Shown: piece after piece, positions 1,162 through 64,000 of the stretch
How positions within the stretch are numbered: position 1 is the first letter of the stretch
Layout of the letters: the number at the start of each line of letters is the position of its first letter
Virus record (IMG/VR): IMGVR_UViG_3300027082_000001
Coordinates: 1-64,000 of that record
Direction: 5' to 3' (one strand)
From: a virus
Length of the DNA: 64,000 nt
Translations under genes and position numbers: made by a program
Notes under the pieces: model-generated
Seen by the model: only the letters and a program-made list of their open reading frames with translations
Databases searched by the model: none
What the model was told of the DNA's origin: nothing

Positions 1162-3723
1162 ATGACCATGCAAGTCCTGAATGGCAGCGACTTCGAACAG
1201 AAAAACGTCCTGATCGGAGGCGGTGAAACTGAGGCATTCGGGGTCACAAATGACCCTGTACTGATGAACATGCTGTCCACTGGTCTCTACCAGAAACCAA
1301 TGCGGACCATGATCCAAGAAACGATGTTCAATGCTTGGGATGCCCACCGCATGGGTGATTGCCAAGATACTCCCATCGACATCTACATCAACGACACCTC
1401 GGGTCTGATCATTCGTGACTATGGTCCCGGTATCCATAAGAGCGAAATCCACCCGATTTATTGCATCTATGGCAACTCTACCAAGCGTTCCCAAGATGCT
1501 CTCACTGGTGGTTTCGGTCTTGGTTCCAAGTCCCCCTATGCCTACACAGACAGCTTCACTGTCACCTCATTCCACAAAGGAGTGAAGGGAATGTATGTGA
1601 TGAACCGTGTCTCTGACGAAAGTGCAGGTGGACCCGGACGCTCCATCATTTTCGAAGATATCCCTACTGATGAATCAGGACTTCTCGTTACCGTTCCTTT
1701 GAACTCAGAAGGAGACATGGTACGTGCTTATGAGTACGTAAAAGAAATCCTTTATCTTTCTGGAATCAAAGCAAATATTCACTATTGCAATGAAGAAGTA
1801 GAACTCATTGAAGCAGATGAAGTTTCTCCCGGTGAGTGGGTTATCGGTGATGACCAAAACAGTGGTAATCTCTATGCCGTTTACGGTGGTGTTCGCTACA
1901 AGTTGGTTCCGGATGAAGCCTATGAAGCCGAGTATCGGTTCGTCTCCAAAATGGCTCGTCGTCTTGGAACGTTGTACATCGGCTTCAAACCATCGACTTT
2001 GACACCTCTGCCTAGTCGTGAAGGTTTGAACCTGAACGCAAAGACAGTGGAAACCATCCGTAACCAACTGGAAATCATAGAAGAAAACTTTCGTTCCATG
2101 TTGATTCCCTGCGCTCGTGTCATGCTCAAGGAAGGCTTCAAATCCCTCAAGGAATCTGGAGTAGAACCAAAGTTTATGATTGAAGCATGGGTTCGAGTTG
2201 GTGATCGGAAGCCACTTCAGAAAGTAGTGGATCCAGATCATCTTGTTCTGGCTTCTGCACAAGAACAGTGTCCTGACACCATGAATCAGTCGATGTGGAA
2301 CAGCATCTGTACTTTAGTTCTGAAAGACACTGCGGAAGTCGAACGATTCATTAGCAGCAAGCGGTTTGACCAAATGAAGTATATCATTTGGGCCAAAAAC
2401 TTCCCGGAGTTCAAGCACTATCGGGATTACATCATGAATTGGGGACGCTCTTGTCGAAATATCAAGACTGTGAAAATGATCGAAATCCCCAAATCCATGA
2501 AAGAACTGATCGACGCCAAGAAGATCTGTGATGACATCACCGGACTCGACAACGATATTCGTGTTGGTGACAGTGATGATTGGCTTGTGGTGGAGAACAT
2601 CCGTCGTGCTGGTAAGGTGGGGTATATCACTAACCGTCAGAAAACCATCATCGAAAACCTCCGTGGAACCAAGGCTTTGAAAACGCCCAATCGTCGGTAT
2701 CCTGATCGTCTTTGGTTCAAGAAAAATGGTAAAGAGTACAGTAATGTACTACTGACCAAGACGGTCATTCTGGCGAAAACTCTGGGTACTCTGAAAGAGA
2801 CTCGTTTCTCATACCAGAGTATGTTCACCAAGAACTACCCAACAGTCAAAATATATCACCAGTTTCATCGGTCTGCGTTTGGCGACAACTACCACCACGC
2901 CAATGCCCACCCTATAGCTGCTATCGTGGTTCATCAGAAGAAAGGGAACTACGACAAGGCTCTCAAGGCACTAGAGGACGCTGGATACACGGTCTATGAA
3001 GCCGATGAGCCTCCGAAGCAGGTGAGATCCTCTACACCCTCTACACCCTCTACACCTCGTCCGAGAAGCACCTATCCTCTCTACGATCCTACGGAGGAGG
3101 ACTGGTGTGACTGGGACAATCCAGTAGAAAATCCCACCTGCTACATCACTCTGACAGAGCACAAGATCAAAACCGGATATCGCTCGGATCTCCCTGATCG
3201 GAAACTCATGGCTTGGGTTTATCAAAACACGCCTCGTTTCGTGGTTATCCACAACAAGTCTCGTGTGACAAAGAAATTTGATAAGATCCCAACCTACGAG
3301 CAGAAGCTCCACCAGATGATCTGTAAGATTCTGGAAGATCCGCAGAGAGTAGAGACAATGCGTTTGCATTATCTGCTTCAGAAAGAATCGGGACTACCTG
3401 AGAAAATCAGAGCACTTCCAGAGATCCAGAAGTTCTTCGGTCTTCCCTATTTACGAACTAAGCAGAAAGACAAGTTCTGGGAAGACATGACGATCCTTCA
3501 CACGGCAAAGAAATGTCGGTACACCAATACCGATACTCGGGTTCTAGTCCGTGAAAGTCTCAGCCCACACGTCGAAAGTGACGCTGTTTCTTTGGTTCGT
3601 CAGAAAATGAAGAACTTGGAGTTTTTCAACGACTACCGGATGGAGTCTCACATTCGTGGAATGAAACCGGGAGAGATAAAAGTCTTTTCCGAAAAACTCA
3701 TGCGGTTCCTGCGAACTGTTTGA
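1162..3723 (+). CDS. rIIA: rIIA-like protein
   Basis: N-terminal GHKL/Hsp90-like ATPase motifs (ETMFNAWDAH, IRDYGPGI, GGFGLGSKSP). Paired with rIIB as in N4-like phages. Confidence 0.88.
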   Translation: MTMQVLNGSDFEQKNVLIGGGETEAFGVTNDPVLMNMLSTGLYQKPMRTMIQETMFNAWDAHRMGDCQDTPIDIYINDTSGLIIRDYGPGIHKSEIHPIYCIYGNSTKRSQDALTGGFGLGSKSPYAYTDSFTVTSFHKGVKGMYVMNRVSDESAGGPGRSIIFEDIPTDESGLLVTVPLNSEGDMVRAYEYVKEILYLSGIKANIHYCNEEVELIEADEVSPGEWVIGDDQNSGNLYAVYGGVRYKLVPDEAYEAEYRFVSKMARRLGTLYIGFKPSTLTPLPSREGLNLNAKTVETIRNQLEIIEENFRSMLIPCARVMLKEGFKSLKESGVEPKFMIEAWVRVGDRKPLQKVVDPDHLVLASAQEQCPDTMNQSMWNSICTLVLKDTAEVERFISSKRFDQMKYIIWAKNFPEFKHYRDYIMNWGRSCRNIKTVKMIEIPKSMKELIDAKKICDDITGLDNDIRVGDSDDWLVVENIRRAGKVGYITNRQKTIIENLRGTKALKTPNRRYPDRLWFKKNGKEYSNVLLTKTVILAKTLGTLKETRFSYQSMFTKNYPTVKIYHQFHRSAFGDNYHHANAHPIAAIVVHQKKGNYDKALKALEDAGYTVYEADEPPKQVRSSTPSTPSTPRPRSTYPLYDPTEEDWCDWDNPVENPTCYITLTEHKIKTGYRSDLPDRKLMAWVYQNTPRFVVIHNKSRVTKKFDKIPTYEQKLHQMICKILEDPQRVETMRLHYLLQKESGLPEKIRALPEIQKFFGLPYLRTKQKDKFWEDMTILHTAKKCRYTNTDTRVLVRESLSPHVESDAVSLVRQKMKNLEFFNDYRMESHIRGMKPGEIKVFSEKLMRFLRTV
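3031..3057 (+). repeat. 9-bp tandem repeat (TCTACACCC x3) encoding an STP-STP-STP linker in rIIA
   Basis: Seen directly in the sequence; the third copy ends in CCT. Confidence 0.8.
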
Positions 3724-3742
3724 TCAAACCAAGAGGTAAACC

Positions 3743-5173
3743 ATGACCGACAATACCAAGAACGTCGTGTCCATGTTGGCTTCCGAGACGAATATCATGC
3801 TCATCACCGTTGATGGTGAAGTGCTTGATATGAAGATCGACGGCCCGTATGACACGACGGCACTTGCGGAGTTTCTGACTCCCAAACTGGACGGAAAGAC
3901 AGTCGTTCTGACTGACCTGAACCAGTTCATGACAATCTCCAAAGCCATCATTCCTGAAGGCTTTGAGAACAGTGGCATAATTGTCACACACGAAATCAAC
4001 GGCAAACAGGTTCAGGGGATCTTCTATCCTCAGAAAGTCTCTGTGGCCGTTGAACACGAGGGTGAACAGGTTGTCATCCCGAAGGTGGAGAAGCTCCAAA
4101 AGCACGCAAACCGTGCTGCTGATGAACAATCCCCTGCGGTACGTAACTTCCTTCGTCGCCTCGCTCCAGTGGCCAAAGATCGCCTTCACAGTGCTGAAGA
4201 TCTGATGGACTTCATCGAACGGTCTGAGCTTCCGCTCACCAACGACGGTCTCATCATCGGATACAAGAAGGTGAACCAACGGTCTAATGAAATGTTCGTT
4301 GATATCCACTCGGGTAAAATCGAACAACAGGTCGGGAGTCACGTCTGGATGGATGTGGATGGGGTTGATCCCAGTCGCAACCGTTCCTGCTCTCACGGCC
4401 TGCATGTGGCCAATCTTGGCTACCTTCGTTGGTTTGGTGGTTCTCACACTCTGATCGTTCTGGTGGATCCTGCAAATTTCATTGCTGTCCCTCATGGCGA
4501 GACGAACAAGGCCCGTGTCTGTGCATATGATGTCATTGGCGTCATGACTGCACAAACACATGAGATGGTTGACTCTGGTGCATTCGTCACCGGAGAACAG
4601 ACCTTCAACTCTGTCATCCAAGATGCAGTGATGGGACGAGCTATCAAGCCGTTCGAAGCTGTGCAGGTAGGTGATAAAAAGGTGGAGAGTCGAGTGGCTA
4701 TCAAAGGCCGTGAGATCCCTGCTATAGCCTTGGAAGAAGCCAAGCCTGATATACAAACCTCTGGTGAATCTCTGAATATTGATAAAGAGATTCGTCGTGA
4801 AAAGAAGGACATCGTGAAGATGGCAAAAACTTCTCAGAAAACTGCAACTGGCGCAATGCCTTGGGACTCTGCTCCAAAAGAAGTCATCGCAGTGTTCGAA
4901 GATCTCCGTCTGGAGAAAGGCTCGAAGTCGGCAATCGCTGCACTTCACAACACCTCGACCCGTACCATGGGTCGCTGGGCTGACAAGTACGACTACGACG
5001 GTTACGTGAAGTCGAAAGAAACGACTCTCACCGTCACCGAACGTGCTCGCCTAATGTTCAATCAGGGTGCTTTCGAAGCACTAGCAGCCTTCAAGAAGGC
5101 AAAGAAAAAGAGCTACAATGCGCTCGGATTCACTGCCAAAGAAGAGAAACAGATTCTGACTGCTATCAGTTAA
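3743..5173 (+). CDS. rIIB: rIIB-like protein
   Basis: LPLTNDGLIIGYKKV, CSHGLHV and VDPANFIAVP..KARVCAY motifs; C-terminal HTH-like segment. Confidence 0.88.
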   Translation: MTDNTKNVVSMLASETNIMLITVDGEVLDMKIDGPYDTTALAEFLTPKLDGKTVVLTDLNQFMTISKAIIPEGFENSGIIVTHEINGKQVQGIFYPQKVSVAVEHEGEQVVIPKVEKLQKHANRAADEQSPAVRNFLRRLAPVAKDRLHSAEDLMDFIERSELPLTNDGLIIGYKKVNQRSNEMFVDIHSGKIEQQVGSHVWMDVDGVDPSRNRSCSHGLHVANLGYLRWFGGSHTLIVLVDPANFIAVPHGETNKARVCAYDVIGVMTAQTHEMVDSGAFVTGEQTFNSVIQDAVMGRAIKPFEAVQVGDKKVESRVAIKGREIPAIALEEAKPDIQTSGESLNIDKEIRREKKDIVKMAKTSQKTATGAMPWDSAPKEVIAVFEDLRLEKGSKSAIAALHNTSTRTMGRWADKYDYDGYVKSKETTLTVTERARLMFNQGAFEALAAFKKAKKKSYNALGFTAKEEKQILTAIS

Positions 5174-60867: not shown

Positions 60868-60909
60868 ACTGGCTTCTCAACTTCATGTTGGGAAGCCAGT
60901 TCTTTTTTT
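60868..60909 (+). terminator. Rho-independent terminator
   Basis: ACTGGCTTCTCAAC-ttcat-GTTGGGAAGCCAGT followed by TCTTTTTTT. Confidence 0.88.
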
Positions 60910-60974
60910 CCAACTCAAGTTCTTGTTTTTTGGAGAGCAGATAGACCTGAGATCTGACTCACACCTATATGGTG

Positions 60975-60992
60975 GCGGCTTCGCCGCTCTTG
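60975..60992 (+). promoter_or_regulatory. vRNAP hairpin promoter 3
   Basis: GCGGC-TTC-GCCGC-TCTTG upstream of RNAP1. Confidence 0.8.
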
Positions 60993-61096
60993 CGCTTTGC
61001 GCCTAACTCGGGATTCCAACATCTATAAACTGAAAGTTCCGAAATGTGGCTGAAGTGACTAAACTAAACCCAACACTAACCACAGGAGAAAACCCC

Positions 61097-61888
61097 ATGG
61101 AAATGACTGAAAACATGGTCGAAACTCAGCGAAATCTTGAGGAACTGTTCCATCGGAATCAGTTGCTGGATGTACTGCGTGAGCAATTCCAGCCTCTGAC
61201 TGATGACCCGTTCAAACTCGACTGTGTGGTACAGATCTACCTGCACAAGCAGGCTGATGTACCAACCATGGTGGGACTGTTCAGCCCGAAGTGGGGAACA
61301 CCACAAGAAGTGGCTGAGATGCTCAAGGAAGTCGTGGAAGATGACCTCATCGACTTCAACATGGAACACATGAAGTTCGTGTTAAAGTACGAGATCACTG
61401 CTGATGTGGAAGAACAACTGGCCAACTACCAGTTTCCTCTGCCAATGGTGGTTCCACCTCGCAAGGTGCAGAACAATCACATGGGCAGTGGCTACATCGA
61501 CCGTCGTGGGAAAATCATCCTTAATGGATCTGATGTCTTCGACGACGAAGACGTATGTCTCGACCATATAAACCGAGCCAACAGTGTCGGTCTGTCTCTG
61601 AACATGAATGTCATCGCATCTGAAGAAGGTCACATGATCCTACCCAAGAGAAAGATCGGTGAGAGCTTCGACGAATTCCAGAAGCGTCAGAAACAAGCCA
61701 AGGTGTTCTATGAGAACTCTATGAATGTCATGCAGGGACTGCTGACTCTCGGAAACGAGTTCTGGCTGACATGGAAATATGATAGACGTGGAAGGTCATA
61801 CTGTGTAGGATATCACGTAAACGCACAAGGAACGGAATATAACAAAGCGGTCCTTGAGCTTCACAACAAAGAGGTCATTACAGGATGA
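61097..61888 (+). CDS. RNA polymerase II subunit 1 (N4 gp15, RNAP1)
   Basis: FPLPMVVPP and YDRRGRSY (DxRGR) motifs; AGGAG RBS before ATG 61097. Confidence 0.9.
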   Translation: MEMTENMVETQRNLEELFHRNQLLDVLREQFQPLTDDPFKLDCVVQIYLHKQADVPTMVGLFSPKWGTPQEVAEMLKEVVEDDLIDFNMEHMKFVLKYEITADVEEQLANYQFPLPMVVPPRKVQNNHMGSGYIDRRGKIILNGSDVFDDEDVCLDHINRANSVGLSLNMNVIASEEGHMILPKRKIGESFDEFQKRQKQAKVFYENSMNVMQGLLTLGNEFWLTWKYDRRGRSYCVGYHVNAQGTEYNKAVLELHNKEVITG

Positions 61889-62412
61889 AAACAAAACCAC
61901 TTCCATCACAAGCTGAGTTATGTGAACTGCTTGAGTATGATCCAGTCACTGGATCTCTCAAGTGGAAACCAAGATCTGACAAATACTCAGATTATTTGAG
62001 GTTCAATAAACGACATGCAGGACGTGAAGCATTTACTTGTGTCTCACGAGGGTATCGCACAGGATCGATTTATGGAACTAACTACAAAGCTGCACGAGTG
62101 ATTTGGAAAATGATTCATGGACATGATCCAGAAATCATTGACCATACTGATGGCAATAAGCTCAACAATCGATTGAGCAATCTCATCAACACTACACAAG
62201 CTCAAAATACCAAAAACCGAGCCAACTACAAAAACAATACATCCGGTTATTCGGGTGTATCTTGGATTACTCGACTTCAGAAATGGCAAGTGACGACTGG
62301 TGGTGCGAAGAATCGCAAATACCATGGCACGTATGCTGATCTTGATGAAGCAATCAAAGTTAAACAACAAGCAGAAAAGGATGAACAATACCATGCAAAC
62401 CATGGACGATAA
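61885..62412 (+). CDS. HNH homing endonuclease with AP2-like C-terminus
   Basis: YDPVTGSLKW, IDHTDGNKLNNRLSNL, NNTSGYSGVSW; AT-richer than its neighbours. Confidence 0.9.
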   Translation: MKTKPLPSQAELCELLEYDPVTGSLKWKPRSDKYSDYLRFNKRHAGREAFTCVSRGYRTGSIYGTNYKAARVIWKMIHGHDPEIIDHTDGNKLNNRLSNLINTTQAQNTKNRANYKNNTSGYSGVSWITRLQKWQVTTGGAKNRKYHGTYADLDEAIKVKQQAEKDEQYHANHGR

Positions 62413-62458
62413 CAAAGCTGTGCTCGAACTGAGCAGAAAGGAAGTCATCAATGGCTGA
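62411..62458 (+). pseudogene. Displaced second copy of the RNAP1 3' end
   Basis: Encodes NKAVLELSRKEVING*, versus NKAVLELHNKEVITG* at 61841-61888. Confidence 0.8.
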
Positions 62459-62780
62459 TCGTAGCTATTTCCCGATGGACGATCTTCGTAAACTCATGGA
62501 CGTAGAGTTTGTGAACAAAAGCAAGATCACCTGCATCAAACATCTACGTTCAATGACAGGAGAAAATCTGAGGGAAATCAAAGACTTCTTCGAACAAGAG
62601 TGGTTGCCATTCATCAATGGCACTCGCACACCACCGAAAGAGATCAAAACCTACATCAGTGAAACTCCTGAATTTGAAGCACTTGTGCAGCAGGTTCGGA
62701 AACTCTCTGAAGAGGTCGATTCTCTCAAGTCCATGAACACACGTTCACGGACAGCAACCATCTTCAACGATGAGGAGTAA
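62451..62780 (+). CDS. Ribosomal protein bL12 C-terminal-domain-like protein
   Basis: KITCIKHLRSMTGENLREIKDFFE resembles the L7/L12 CTD consensus KIxxIKxVRxxTGLGLKEAKDxVE. Confidence 0.6.
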   Translation: MADRSYFPMDDLRKLMDVEFVNKSKITCIKHLRSMTGENLREIKDFFEQEWLPFINGTRTPPKEIKTYISETPEFEALVQQVRKLSEEVDSLKSMNTRSRTATIFNDEE

Positions 62781-62784
62781 ACCA

Positions 62785-62889
62785 ATGAAATGGCCTTTGA
62801 ATTCATTCTGGTATGATCTCTGGGAGAAGATCCTTGGATCTGATCACATGCAGCGAAACTATATCCGCTGTTCCACTGTGAAGTATTGA
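62785..62889 (+). CDS. Possible 34-aa peptide
   Basis: GAGGAG RBS; MKWPLNSFWYDLWEKILGS... Confidence 0.35.
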   Translation: MKWPLNSFWYDLWEKILGSDHMQRNYIRCSTVKY

Positions 62890-62891
62890 TC

Positions 62892-63020
62892 ATGATTATC
62901 GTCAATGGTCAGACCAAATCCTTGGTCATCTTCGGGGAAGTCACACCCAATGACTTCCAAAAATTCATGGCTCAAATGGCTCATGCCATCAGCCTACATC
63001 ATGGAGGAGATCCAGCATGA
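62892..63020 (+). CDS. Possible 42-aa peptide
   Basis: Starts 2 nt after the previous stop; ATGA overlap with the next gene. Confidence 0.4.
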   Translation: MIIVNGQTKSLVIFGEVTPNDFQKFMAQMAHAISLHHGGDPA

Positions 63021-63729: not shown

Positions 63730-64000
63730 ATGCTGAAGGTCCAGCAATTTCGTGAACTAACAGGCAAAGAGTATCTCATGGCTGACATCGCCTGTAAGCA
63801 CGACAAAGCCTATGAAAAACTGGGCTGGGATGAGCGACTGGCTCACTTCGCAGAGATCGACTTCAAGGACAAAAAGACGTTCAAGGAAGCATCAAACCCC
63901 GTGGGACTGCGTGCAGCTTATCTGGCTATGGAAGATGCCATGAACCAAAAACCCAGTGGTTACATGATCAGCCTCGACGCCGCATCGTCAGGACTGCAAC
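63730..64000 (+). CDS. RNA polymerase II subunit 2 (N4 gp16, RNAP2), 3'-truncated by window edge
   Basis: AAGGAG RBS. Translates MLKVQQFRELTGKEYLMADIA...GYMISLDAASSGLQ (motif A DAxxSGLQ). Not in the ORF track. Confidence 0.88.
   Translation, partial: MLKVQQFRELTGKEYLMADIACKHDKAYEKLGWDERLAHFAEIDFKDKKTFKEASNPVGLRAAYLAMEDAMNQKPSGYMISLDAASSGLQ

Follow-up and report, generated by a model that had tools for sequence, protein, structure and literature searches.

How can an endonuclease gene settle within the coding sequence of an essential phage gene that is interrupted by neither an intron nor an intein? This question is raised by the 3′ end of RNAP1, which encodes the N4 gp15-like small subunit of the phage middle RNA polymerase, in the first 64,000 bases (hereafter the window) of the 73,612-base virus record IMGVR_UViG_3300027082_000001. 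The record belongs to an N4-like roseophage. Among named viruses, its nearest relatives are N4-like phages (Schitoviridae, Rhodovirinae) that infect marine bacteria of the Roseobacter group, and 27 GenBank records match the window at 69-76% nucleotide identity. The stop codon of RNAP1 overlaps the ATG of an open reading frame (ORF) for an HNH endonuclease (GGATGA), and a second copy of the end of RNAP1 lies directly behind that ORF. We conclude that a free-standing homing-endonuclease cassette was very probably inserted about 16 codons before the stop codon of RNAP1. This reading, in which the invading cassette brought a new 3′ end for the gene, had been put forward in a first-pass annotation made from the letters of the window, and it is supported by the identity of the remnant, the linkage between the tail and the nuclease gene, an exchange of both between near-identical genomes, and the recurrence of the arrangement.

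The two copies of the RNAP1 end were found where the first-pass annotation had placed them, at 61841-61888 and 62411-62458. Of their 15 residues, 12 are the same, 9 of these being written with different synonymous codons, and the nucleotide identity over the 15 codons is 30/45. Only two positions of the 64-kb window, 61839 and 62409, carry the exact 10-nt sequence ATAACAAAGC, for which chance alone predicts 0.10 matches; 0 of 100 shuffles contained it two or more times. The upstream copy, which is the one in use, holds AAAGAGG, a Shine-Dalgarno-like motif ahead of the HNH start codon. The downstream copy overlaps the HNH stop codon by 2 nt and, as the annotation had also proposed, supplies the ribosome-binding site and start codon of the next gene: the ATG at 62451 lies within ATGGCTGA, AAGGAA precedes it by 7 nt, and stop and start still overlap by the native 8 nt. 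As a control for chance similarity, the last 12 residues of RNAP1 were compared with the three-frame translation of the following 1600 nt in 135 locus rows (duplicates counted). The score was 9/12 for the window and at most 6/12 for the reverse-strand controls. Downstream matches of at least 7/12 were present in 8 of the 13 rows with an HNH gene beside RNAP1, in 1 of the 122 rows lacking one, and in 0 of 135 reverse-strand controls; the sole HNH-less row, at 7/12, is L131, a locus that bears another endonuclease-like ORF. A second RKEMING-stop stretch farther downstream in phages DSS3phi2 and V12 (6/12) was considered as a second remnant, and is better explained as the similar ribosome-binding/start region of another gene.

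A native end should look like the end of RNAP1 in phages that lack the HNH gene. The prediction that HNH-less relatives end like the downstream copy and not like the upstream one was borne out in all 12 relatives first compared (DSS3phi2, V12, R2C, R7L, RPP1, AX, V13, DS-1410Ws-06, phiCB2047-B, RD-1410W1-01, RD-1410Ws-07 and the IMG/VR genome L007), a typical spelling being AAC AAA GCA GTG CTC GAA CTC ... AAG GAA GTG ATC AAT GGC TGA. The companion prediction, that the next gene of the window, a bL12-like gene, would abut RNAP1 in these relatives, held in part: the gene follows with the same 8-base overlap in DSS3phi2, V12, R2C and R7L, and other genes come next in the remaining 8 of 12. The comparison was later extended to 24 distinct HNH-less roseophage alleles (27 alleles with the HNH-bearing ones). 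Nineteen of the 24 are closer to the remnant than to the in-use tail, with a median nucleotide identity of 0.75 (best 0.90) for the remnant and 0.64 for the in-use tail. An upstream-type block or a downstream duplicate, the pattern named beforehand as contradicting the proposal, was present in 0 of 24. The downstream copy is therefore the native RNAP1 end, now a remnant.

The end in use is spelled differently. A switch in codon use had been noted near 61770, and the G+C fraction at third codon positions (GC3) indeed falls from 0.61 (61097-61768) to 0.25 (61769-61840), or 0.36 when taken over 61769-61885. The value of the tail is thus near that of the HNH ORF (0.32, the lowest of 47 window ORFs of at least 150 aa) and unlike those of RNAP1 and of the remnant (0.60), which keeps the usual codons of the phage as had been claimed. 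The part of the tail ahead of the duplicated end, here called block A, differs from the HNH-less consensus at 26 of 72 nt, compared with a median of 0.097 and a maximum of 0.264 among HNH-less alleles, and the two most divergent of the 27 alleles in this block are the window and roseophage EE36phi1. Twelve of its codon changes are synonymous and 6 are non-synonymous. They include CGT to AGA at a codon that is CGT in 24/24 HNH-less alleles, a further arginine change from CGT/CGC/CGG to AGG, and a His to Trp replacement at 61772-61774 (LTHKYD) that the window shares with EE36phi1; by eye, all other alignable N4-like rows save L074 have His at this position. The re-spelling falls where HNH-less alleles vary least: among the 24, the segment across DRRGR is the most nucleotide-conserved of the last 200 codons (mean pairwise identity 0.82-0.89). 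No donor of the window-type tail was found among these 24 alleles, none exceeding 0.75 over the whole tail or 0.74 over block A, and a degenerate pattern of the re-spelled DRRGR stretch retrieved EE36phi1 only from IMG/VR, in a scan from which the window's own record was possibly excluded.

The tail and the nuclease gene occur together. In EE36phi1, block A is 94% nucleotide-identical to that of the window, the same ATGA overlap joins RNAP1 to the HNH gene, and a remnant of 17 codons follows. A tree of the upstream part of RNAP1 groups the window with the HNH-bearing contig L029 and HNH-less L007, and EE36phi1 with HNH-less V12 and DSS3phi2, both groups at 100/100. The HNH gene is therefore sporadic at one conserved site, with 3 of 27 distinct roseophage alleles carrying it in two clades that also hold HNH-less members.

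The sharpest view of the mobile unit comes from genomes nearly identical to the window. L029, a metagenome contig of 2,346 nt, matches the window at 92-100% identity over 61291-61767 and 62358-~62610, but identity drops to 42-63% between 61768 and 62357. This interval holds a different HNH_3/AP2 gene (51% aa identity, alignment A2) with its own spacer and start codon, and a different replacement tail, GDDYRKAVLQLAHKEVITG followed by a stop codon, with the DRRGR stretch natively spelled; over the remnant and the final 55 bases of the HNH ORF, contig and window do not differ. The left edge recurs in contigs of 3 runs from three other studies (X2-X4), which match the window at 95-100% up to exactly 61767 and then continue with the native CAC(C/T)CACAAGTATGACCGTCGTGG; the X3 and X4 contigs resume the match at 62373, and since these runs are represented by contigs, their uncovered parts between 61810 and 62370 carry no meaning alone. 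A run that holds the whole stretch is perhaps the window's own source and was left out of this count. The replaced block runs from 61768/61769 to a right-hand recombination boundary near 62358, within the 3′ end of the HNH ORF. From the L029 and three-study breakpoints it follows that 61768-~62357 is an exchangeable unit in which the re-spelled tail changes along with the nuclease gene. The re-spelled zone itself is placed otherwise in the two types: the window type covers DRRGR, whereas the L029 type covers only the last ~19 codons. Because L029-type genomes retain the native DRRGR stretch, these could, more speculatively, be rival cassettes with staggered re-spelled zones, whose nucleases may displace one another.

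The product of the inserted ORF, the sole member of its family in the genome, belongs to a recognizable nuclease family, as indicated by matches to PF13392 (E 1.8e-10, 40.7 bits, cut-off 24.8) and phrog_99 (E 1.8e-52). Residues D86, H87, N99 and N111 are invariant in 11 HNH homologs, in all of which the ORF and the motif are intact. A putative AP2-like C-terminal DNA-binding domain is suggested by homolog L145, whose AP2 Pfam match is above threshold (41.7 bits). The AlphaFold model (mean predicted local distance difference test score 82) has as its best PDB fold match I-HmuI (1u3e; E 0.017, probability 0.99, TM 0.41), followed by AP2 domains (probability 0.89-1.00, E > 0.01). A sequence search of the protein against PDB chains gave no match at E <= 0.01, and a single-protein scan of IMG/VR with it gave no matches. 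EE36phi1 is the only GenBank phage with a close homolog (73.7% aa identity), the next best reaching 42.5%.

Splicing is not needed to make a complete polymerase subunit, in agreement with the annotation's proposal. RNAP1, read from the ATG at 61097 or alternatively from a GTG at 61046, is full length by comparison with the chain 'RNAP1' of PDB 6dt7 (E 7.4e-67 for a profile of 12 RNAP1 sequences, covering chain residues 3-268 of 269), and a stop codon separates it from the HNH ORF. Searches with intron families over 60900-63000 gave no match at E <= 1. An intron or intein was rejected on these grounds, with RNAP1 reaching its normal end and stop before the HNH ORF, and a gene split into pieces was likewise rejected given the full-length subunit and a remnant that has no start codon.

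The arrangement recurs beyond the roseophages. We surveyed 111 distinct N4-like loci with at least 700 nt of sequence after RNAP1 and found, in 11 of them, an HNH_3 homolog starting within 400 nt of the RNAP1 stop codon. The layout of tail, HNH gene and remnant is present in 6 of the 11 (the window, EE36phi1, L029, OLIVR1, L108 and L145). In Agrobacterium phage OLIVR1, from another genus, IEFAHGELVED (tail) and VEFAHGELLED (remnant), each followed by a stop codon, share 9/11 residues, and 8/9 of the shared codons differ. The remnant of L108 is 0.86-0.90 identical to the tails of HNH-less L097, L107 and L117, compared with 0.68-0.71 for its in-use tail. The same site is occupied in 5 distinct loci (L131 at 3348-3965, L125, L113/L050, L118 and L049) by a second, unrelated family of endonuclease-like ORFs of ~205 aa with an N-terminal Cys cluster of the Zn-finger type and a weak NUMOD1 match (E 0.01). 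In L131, a 24-codon remnant of the RNAP1 end lies 690 nt downstream, giving the same layout with another type of nuclease.

Table 1. Coordinates of the RNAP1 3′ end, the inserted endonuclease gene and neighboring features in the window.
Feature	Position	Strand	Basis or remark
RNAP1, N4 gp15-like small subunit of phage middle RNA polymerase, complete	61097..61888	+	phrog_2166 'N4-like RNA polymerase', E 1.2e-92
Block A of replacement tail, T-W-K-Y-D-R-R-G-R ... T-E-Y, spanning the DxxGR motif	61769..61840	+	re-spelled relative to all HNH-less alleles
Upstream copy of exact 10-nt repeat ATAACAAAGC	61839..61848	+	
Block B of replacement tail, NKAVLELHNKEVITG and stop codon, in-use copy of the duplicated end	61841..61888	+	
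Free-standing HNH_3 endonuclease ORF, 175 aa, putative AP2-like C-terminal DNA-binding domain	61885..62412	+	PF13392, phrog_99
Last 55 nt of HNH ORF, right-hand recombination boundary of the swapped block	62358..62412	+	100% identical to L029
Downstream copy of exact 10-nt repeat ATAACAAAGC, across the HNH-stop/remnant junction	62409..62418	+	
Remnant of native RNAP1 3′ end, NKAVLELSRKEVING and stop codon, without start codon	62411..62458	+	
Next gene, 109 aa, bL12 C-terminal-domain-like, starting inside the remnant	62451..62780	+	phrog_23470, E 7.6e-41, of unknown function
RNAP2 start, N4 gp16-like, running off the window	63730..64000	+	phrog_2051, E 3.2e-26

The surroundings of the locus vary among relatives in other ways (Table 1). 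The match of the bL12-like product to PF00542, the bL12 C-terminal domain, is below the cut-off (E 5e-4, 20.7 bits, cut-off 25.9). Within this gene, at 62636-62722, relatives that are otherwise ~95% identical contain a strongly diverged patch of equal length: identity to L029 falls to 0.57, and the X3 and X4 contigs have 87 nt of the same length, diverged. This patch could be a hypervariable or exchanged segment. In L007, the closest HNH-less relative of the window, an unannotated 57-aa ORF lacking a Pfam match lies between RNAP1 and the bL12-like gene (3285-3458), and its ATG overlaps the RNAP1 stop region. EE36phi1 (~2935-3010) lacks the bL12-like gene and the two small ORFs found after RNAP1 in DSS3phi2 (2276-3100), the residue of the deletion being a 23-codon fused ORF that begins in the remnant; a similar start region, AAAGGAA-N-TGATCAATGGCT, stands at both ends of the deletion and may have mediated it. 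An exact 13-nt direct repeat, AAACCGAGCCAAC, occurs in RNAP1 (61570-61582) and in the HNH ORF (62214-62226), possibly by chance.

These observations can be assembled into a mechanism. The mobile unit would comprise the replacement RNAP1 tail (61768/9-61888, the last 40 codons) and the HNH ORF (61885-62412). Because the insertion point lies inside coding sequence, with no intron or intein to restore it, the cassette itself would supply the missing end of RNAP1. This end is spelled unlike the native one, so that the highly conserved native target would be missing from the resident genome. The displaced 3′ end would be retained for the sake of the next gene, whose ribosome-binding site, ATG and stop/start overlap it contains, and it would also provide homology on the downstream side. 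In a mixed infection, RNAP1 tails that lack the cassette may then be nicked or cut by the nuclease, and the cassette would be copied into them during repair, with the cassette-bearing genome as template.

A passive origin of the tail deserves the closest consideration. It might be the RNAP1 end of a diverged donor that was co-converted with the endonuclease gene, its spelling unselected and immunity provided only by the split target. The tail does share the low GC3 of the HNH ORF, its last 15 codons resemble the native tail of phiCB2047-B (0.81-0.83), and the mitochondrial precedents in Allomyces and Glomus are read in this manner in the relevant passages of PMC3630166. Yet none of the 24 HNH-less alleles comes near the whole tail: the best value of 0.75, and of 0.74 for block A, contrasts with the mutual identity of the HNH-less alleles across DRRGR, and the block pattern occurs in IMG/VR only in EE36phi1. 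Such hitch-hiking also sits poorly with two-base synonymous arginine switches at an invariant codon, with the loss of a near-invariant histidine, and with the finding that the different HNH gene of L029 is accompanied by a differently placed re-spelled zone. We therefore regard a passively acquired tail as possible but rather unlikely. Less probable still is an old, vertically inherited HNH gene, now immobile or domesticated, which recombination with HNH-less phages would have removed again and again, so that its patchy occurrence reflects loss and not gain. The divergence between the window and EE36phi1 HNH genes, which is similar to that of the backbones, would suit such a history. The block exchange between the near-identical genomes of L029 and the window, with the same breakpoint in contigs of three further studies, would not, nor would the intact ORF and motif in all 11 homologs, and no HNH-less allele has the hybrid, re-spelled block A followed by a native end, that a deletion between the repeats would leave. 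HNH genes are common inside phage introns, and the fold match to I-HmuI points to an enzyme of that kind, which could make the HNH gene internal to a spliced group I or II intron or intein and the downstream copy the true last exon. Given the negative intron search, the normal end and stop of RNAP1, and an HNH ORF in a separate frame with its own start codon, this appears extremely improbable.

Several points nevertheless weigh against insertion of a homing cassette with a protective tail, or limit what can be claimed for it. The anatomy of the locus, the native origin of the remnant, the association of tail and nuclease gene, the block exchange and the recurrence are read directly from the sequences; the activity of the nuclease, its target, the ability of the re-spelled tail to withstand cutting, and homing as the process behind the exchange are inferred from them. 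The AP2 Pfam match of the window protein is below the cut-off (E 0.11, 13.2 bits, cut-off 33.3), and no PDB fold match of its model reaches E <= 0.001. Five of the 11 HNH_3 loci are without a clear remnant, a short trace being present in one of them (L115). The HNH genes of the window and EE36phi1 (~72% nucleotide identity) are about as diverged as the backbones (~76%), so that this pair alone is no proof of recent transfer, and the lower synonymous divergence of block A between these two phages (4/24 versus 47/127 codons) does not reach significance (p = 0.06). At synonymous sites, the presumed target shows a modest excess of conservation among HNH-less alleles (0.656 versus 0.536, permutation p = 0.013). 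Lastly, the last 15 codons of the in-use tail are no outlier, as HNH-less L031 and L021 are at least as far from the consensus.

The position of the insertions invites a broader, more speculative thought about the two-piece polymerase of N4-like phages. RNAP1 ends where residue ~450 of T7 RNA polymerase aligns, with weak matches to the T7 enzyme (E 0.27) and to mitochondrial RNA polymerase (E 0.013). Endonuclease-like ORFs of two unrelated families lie at the RNAP1 end in 16 of the 111 distinct loci (11 HNH_3 and 5 of the Zn-finger/NUMOD1 type), and in 5 of these 16 (L124, L144 and L101 of the HNH_3 type, L118 and L125 of the second type) the endonuclease ORF is essentially the sole occupant of the 533-652 nt between the RNAP1 stop and the RNAP2 start; it therefore lies exactly at the split point of a T7-like polymerase. 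RNAP2, too, is known to be interrupted by an inserted ORF in two Achromobacter phages. It is conceivable, if rather doubtful, that the RNAP1 3′ end has long been a homing hot spot across the N4-like family, the gp15/gp16 split itself being perhaps an insertion scar. If true, this would offer a testable origin for the two-piece enzyme. A review assigns the DX2GR region to gp15 and palm and fingers to gp16, and it states that the origin of the heterodimer "remains unclear", with no mention of homing in its matching passages (PMC4496689). In Pectobacterium phage Horatius (L018, 503-3034), we also observed an annotated 'DNA-binding domain protein' between the small RNA polymerase subunit and RNAP2, and an HNH homolog (40% aa identity) directly after RNAP2. 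Polymerase genes seem to be favored landing sites across the N4-like family.

The locus thus provides an example of a selfish nuclease gene settling inside an essential phage gene with neither intron nor intein, and the roseophages form a natural series of alleles (no cassette, window type, EE36 type and L029 type). This series makes target, resistance and competition between cassettes testable in cultured phages such as EE36phi1 and DSS3phi2. The finding also has consequences for comparative work: RNAP1 is a core gene in N4-like phage phylogeny and its end can be foreign, and small 'orphan' ORFs behind endonuclease genes may be gene remnants.

Among characterized enzymes, the best fold match of the nuclease, I-HmuI of Bacillus phage introns, belongs to the same HNH_3 family and reportedly nicks one strand. 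It differs from the RNAP1-associated nuclease in being intron-encoded and in having another DNA-binding tail, and no sequence match between the two is detectable. The T4-like phage seg and mob genes offer another comparison. They encode free-standing endonucleases that home without introns and lie between genes or split them, according to the relevant passages of Edgell et al. 2010 (PMC2988022) and, likewise for phage free-standing endonucleases, of PMC10448857. As with seg and mob, the nuclease gene described here stands beside its presumed target gene, is sporadic in relatives and would be expected to spread by break repair with co-conversion of its flanks. The replacement coding end and the native remnant set it apart, since neither is described in those passages of PMC2988022 and PMC10448857. 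Insertion of endonuclease genes can also leave genes in pieces, as in nrdA/mobE of Aeh1 and gene 39/60/mobA of T4 (PMC2988022, same passages), and RNAP2 of Achromobacter phages JWAlpha and JWDelta is reported, in the parts of the descriptions concerned with this gene, to be interrupted by an inserted ORF (Wittmann 2014, PMC3915230; Chan 2014, PMC4193335). These cases share with RNAP1 an endonuclease-type ORF inside the coding sequence of an essential enzyme with no intron or intein. They leave two polypeptides, whereas the new end brought by the cassette keeps RNAP1 in one piece.

The closest architectural parallel is found in fungal mitochondria. In atp6, atp9, cox2 and nad3 of Glomus, an inserted C-terminus accompanied by a LAGLIDADG or GIY-YIG ORF is followed by a duplicate of the native C-terminus; the two atp6 copies share 63.5% of their nucleotides and 91% of their amino acids, and the native copy matches insert-less relatives (Beaudet et al. 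2013, relevant passages of PMC3630166). The first such mobile ORF (mORF), as cited there, was that of Allomyces atp6, and in Endoconidiophora, according to the corresponding passages of PMC6279837, endonuclease ORFs flank duplicated C-termini of atp6 and cob. RNAP1 shows the same succession of gene core, substitute in-frame C-terminus, endonuclease ORF and native duplicate matching insert-less relatives, with two copies alike in protein and diverged in DNA. In contrast to the fungal elements, it resides in a phage and not in an organelle, its nuclease is of the HNH_3/AP2-like and not of the LAGLIDADG or GIY-YIG type, and the host gene encodes an RNA polymerase subunit. The nuclease is moreover a separate, translationally coupled ORF and is not fused in phase, and the next gene still relies on the remnant for its start. 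The RNAP1 cassette works like an mORF but stands outside the mORF element families.

The relevant part of the EE36phi1 paper lists ORF 8 merely as an additional endonuclease (PMC2784036), and literature searches, which covered matching passages of articles, turned up no earlier description of a phage replacement tail with a native remnant. A cassette that brings a re-spelled substitute for the part it displaces would follow a logic common to mitochondrial mobile ORFs and to engineered home-and-rescue gene drives, in which a nuclease directed against an essential gene is combined with an uncuttable rescue copy (Kandul et al. 2021, PMC7968924). The comparison with such drives is drawn here by analogy, for their design appears similar, but they are synthetic, Cas9-based and at work in a diploid animal. 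The architecture was already known from fungal mitochondria, and its occurrence in a phage appears to be new.

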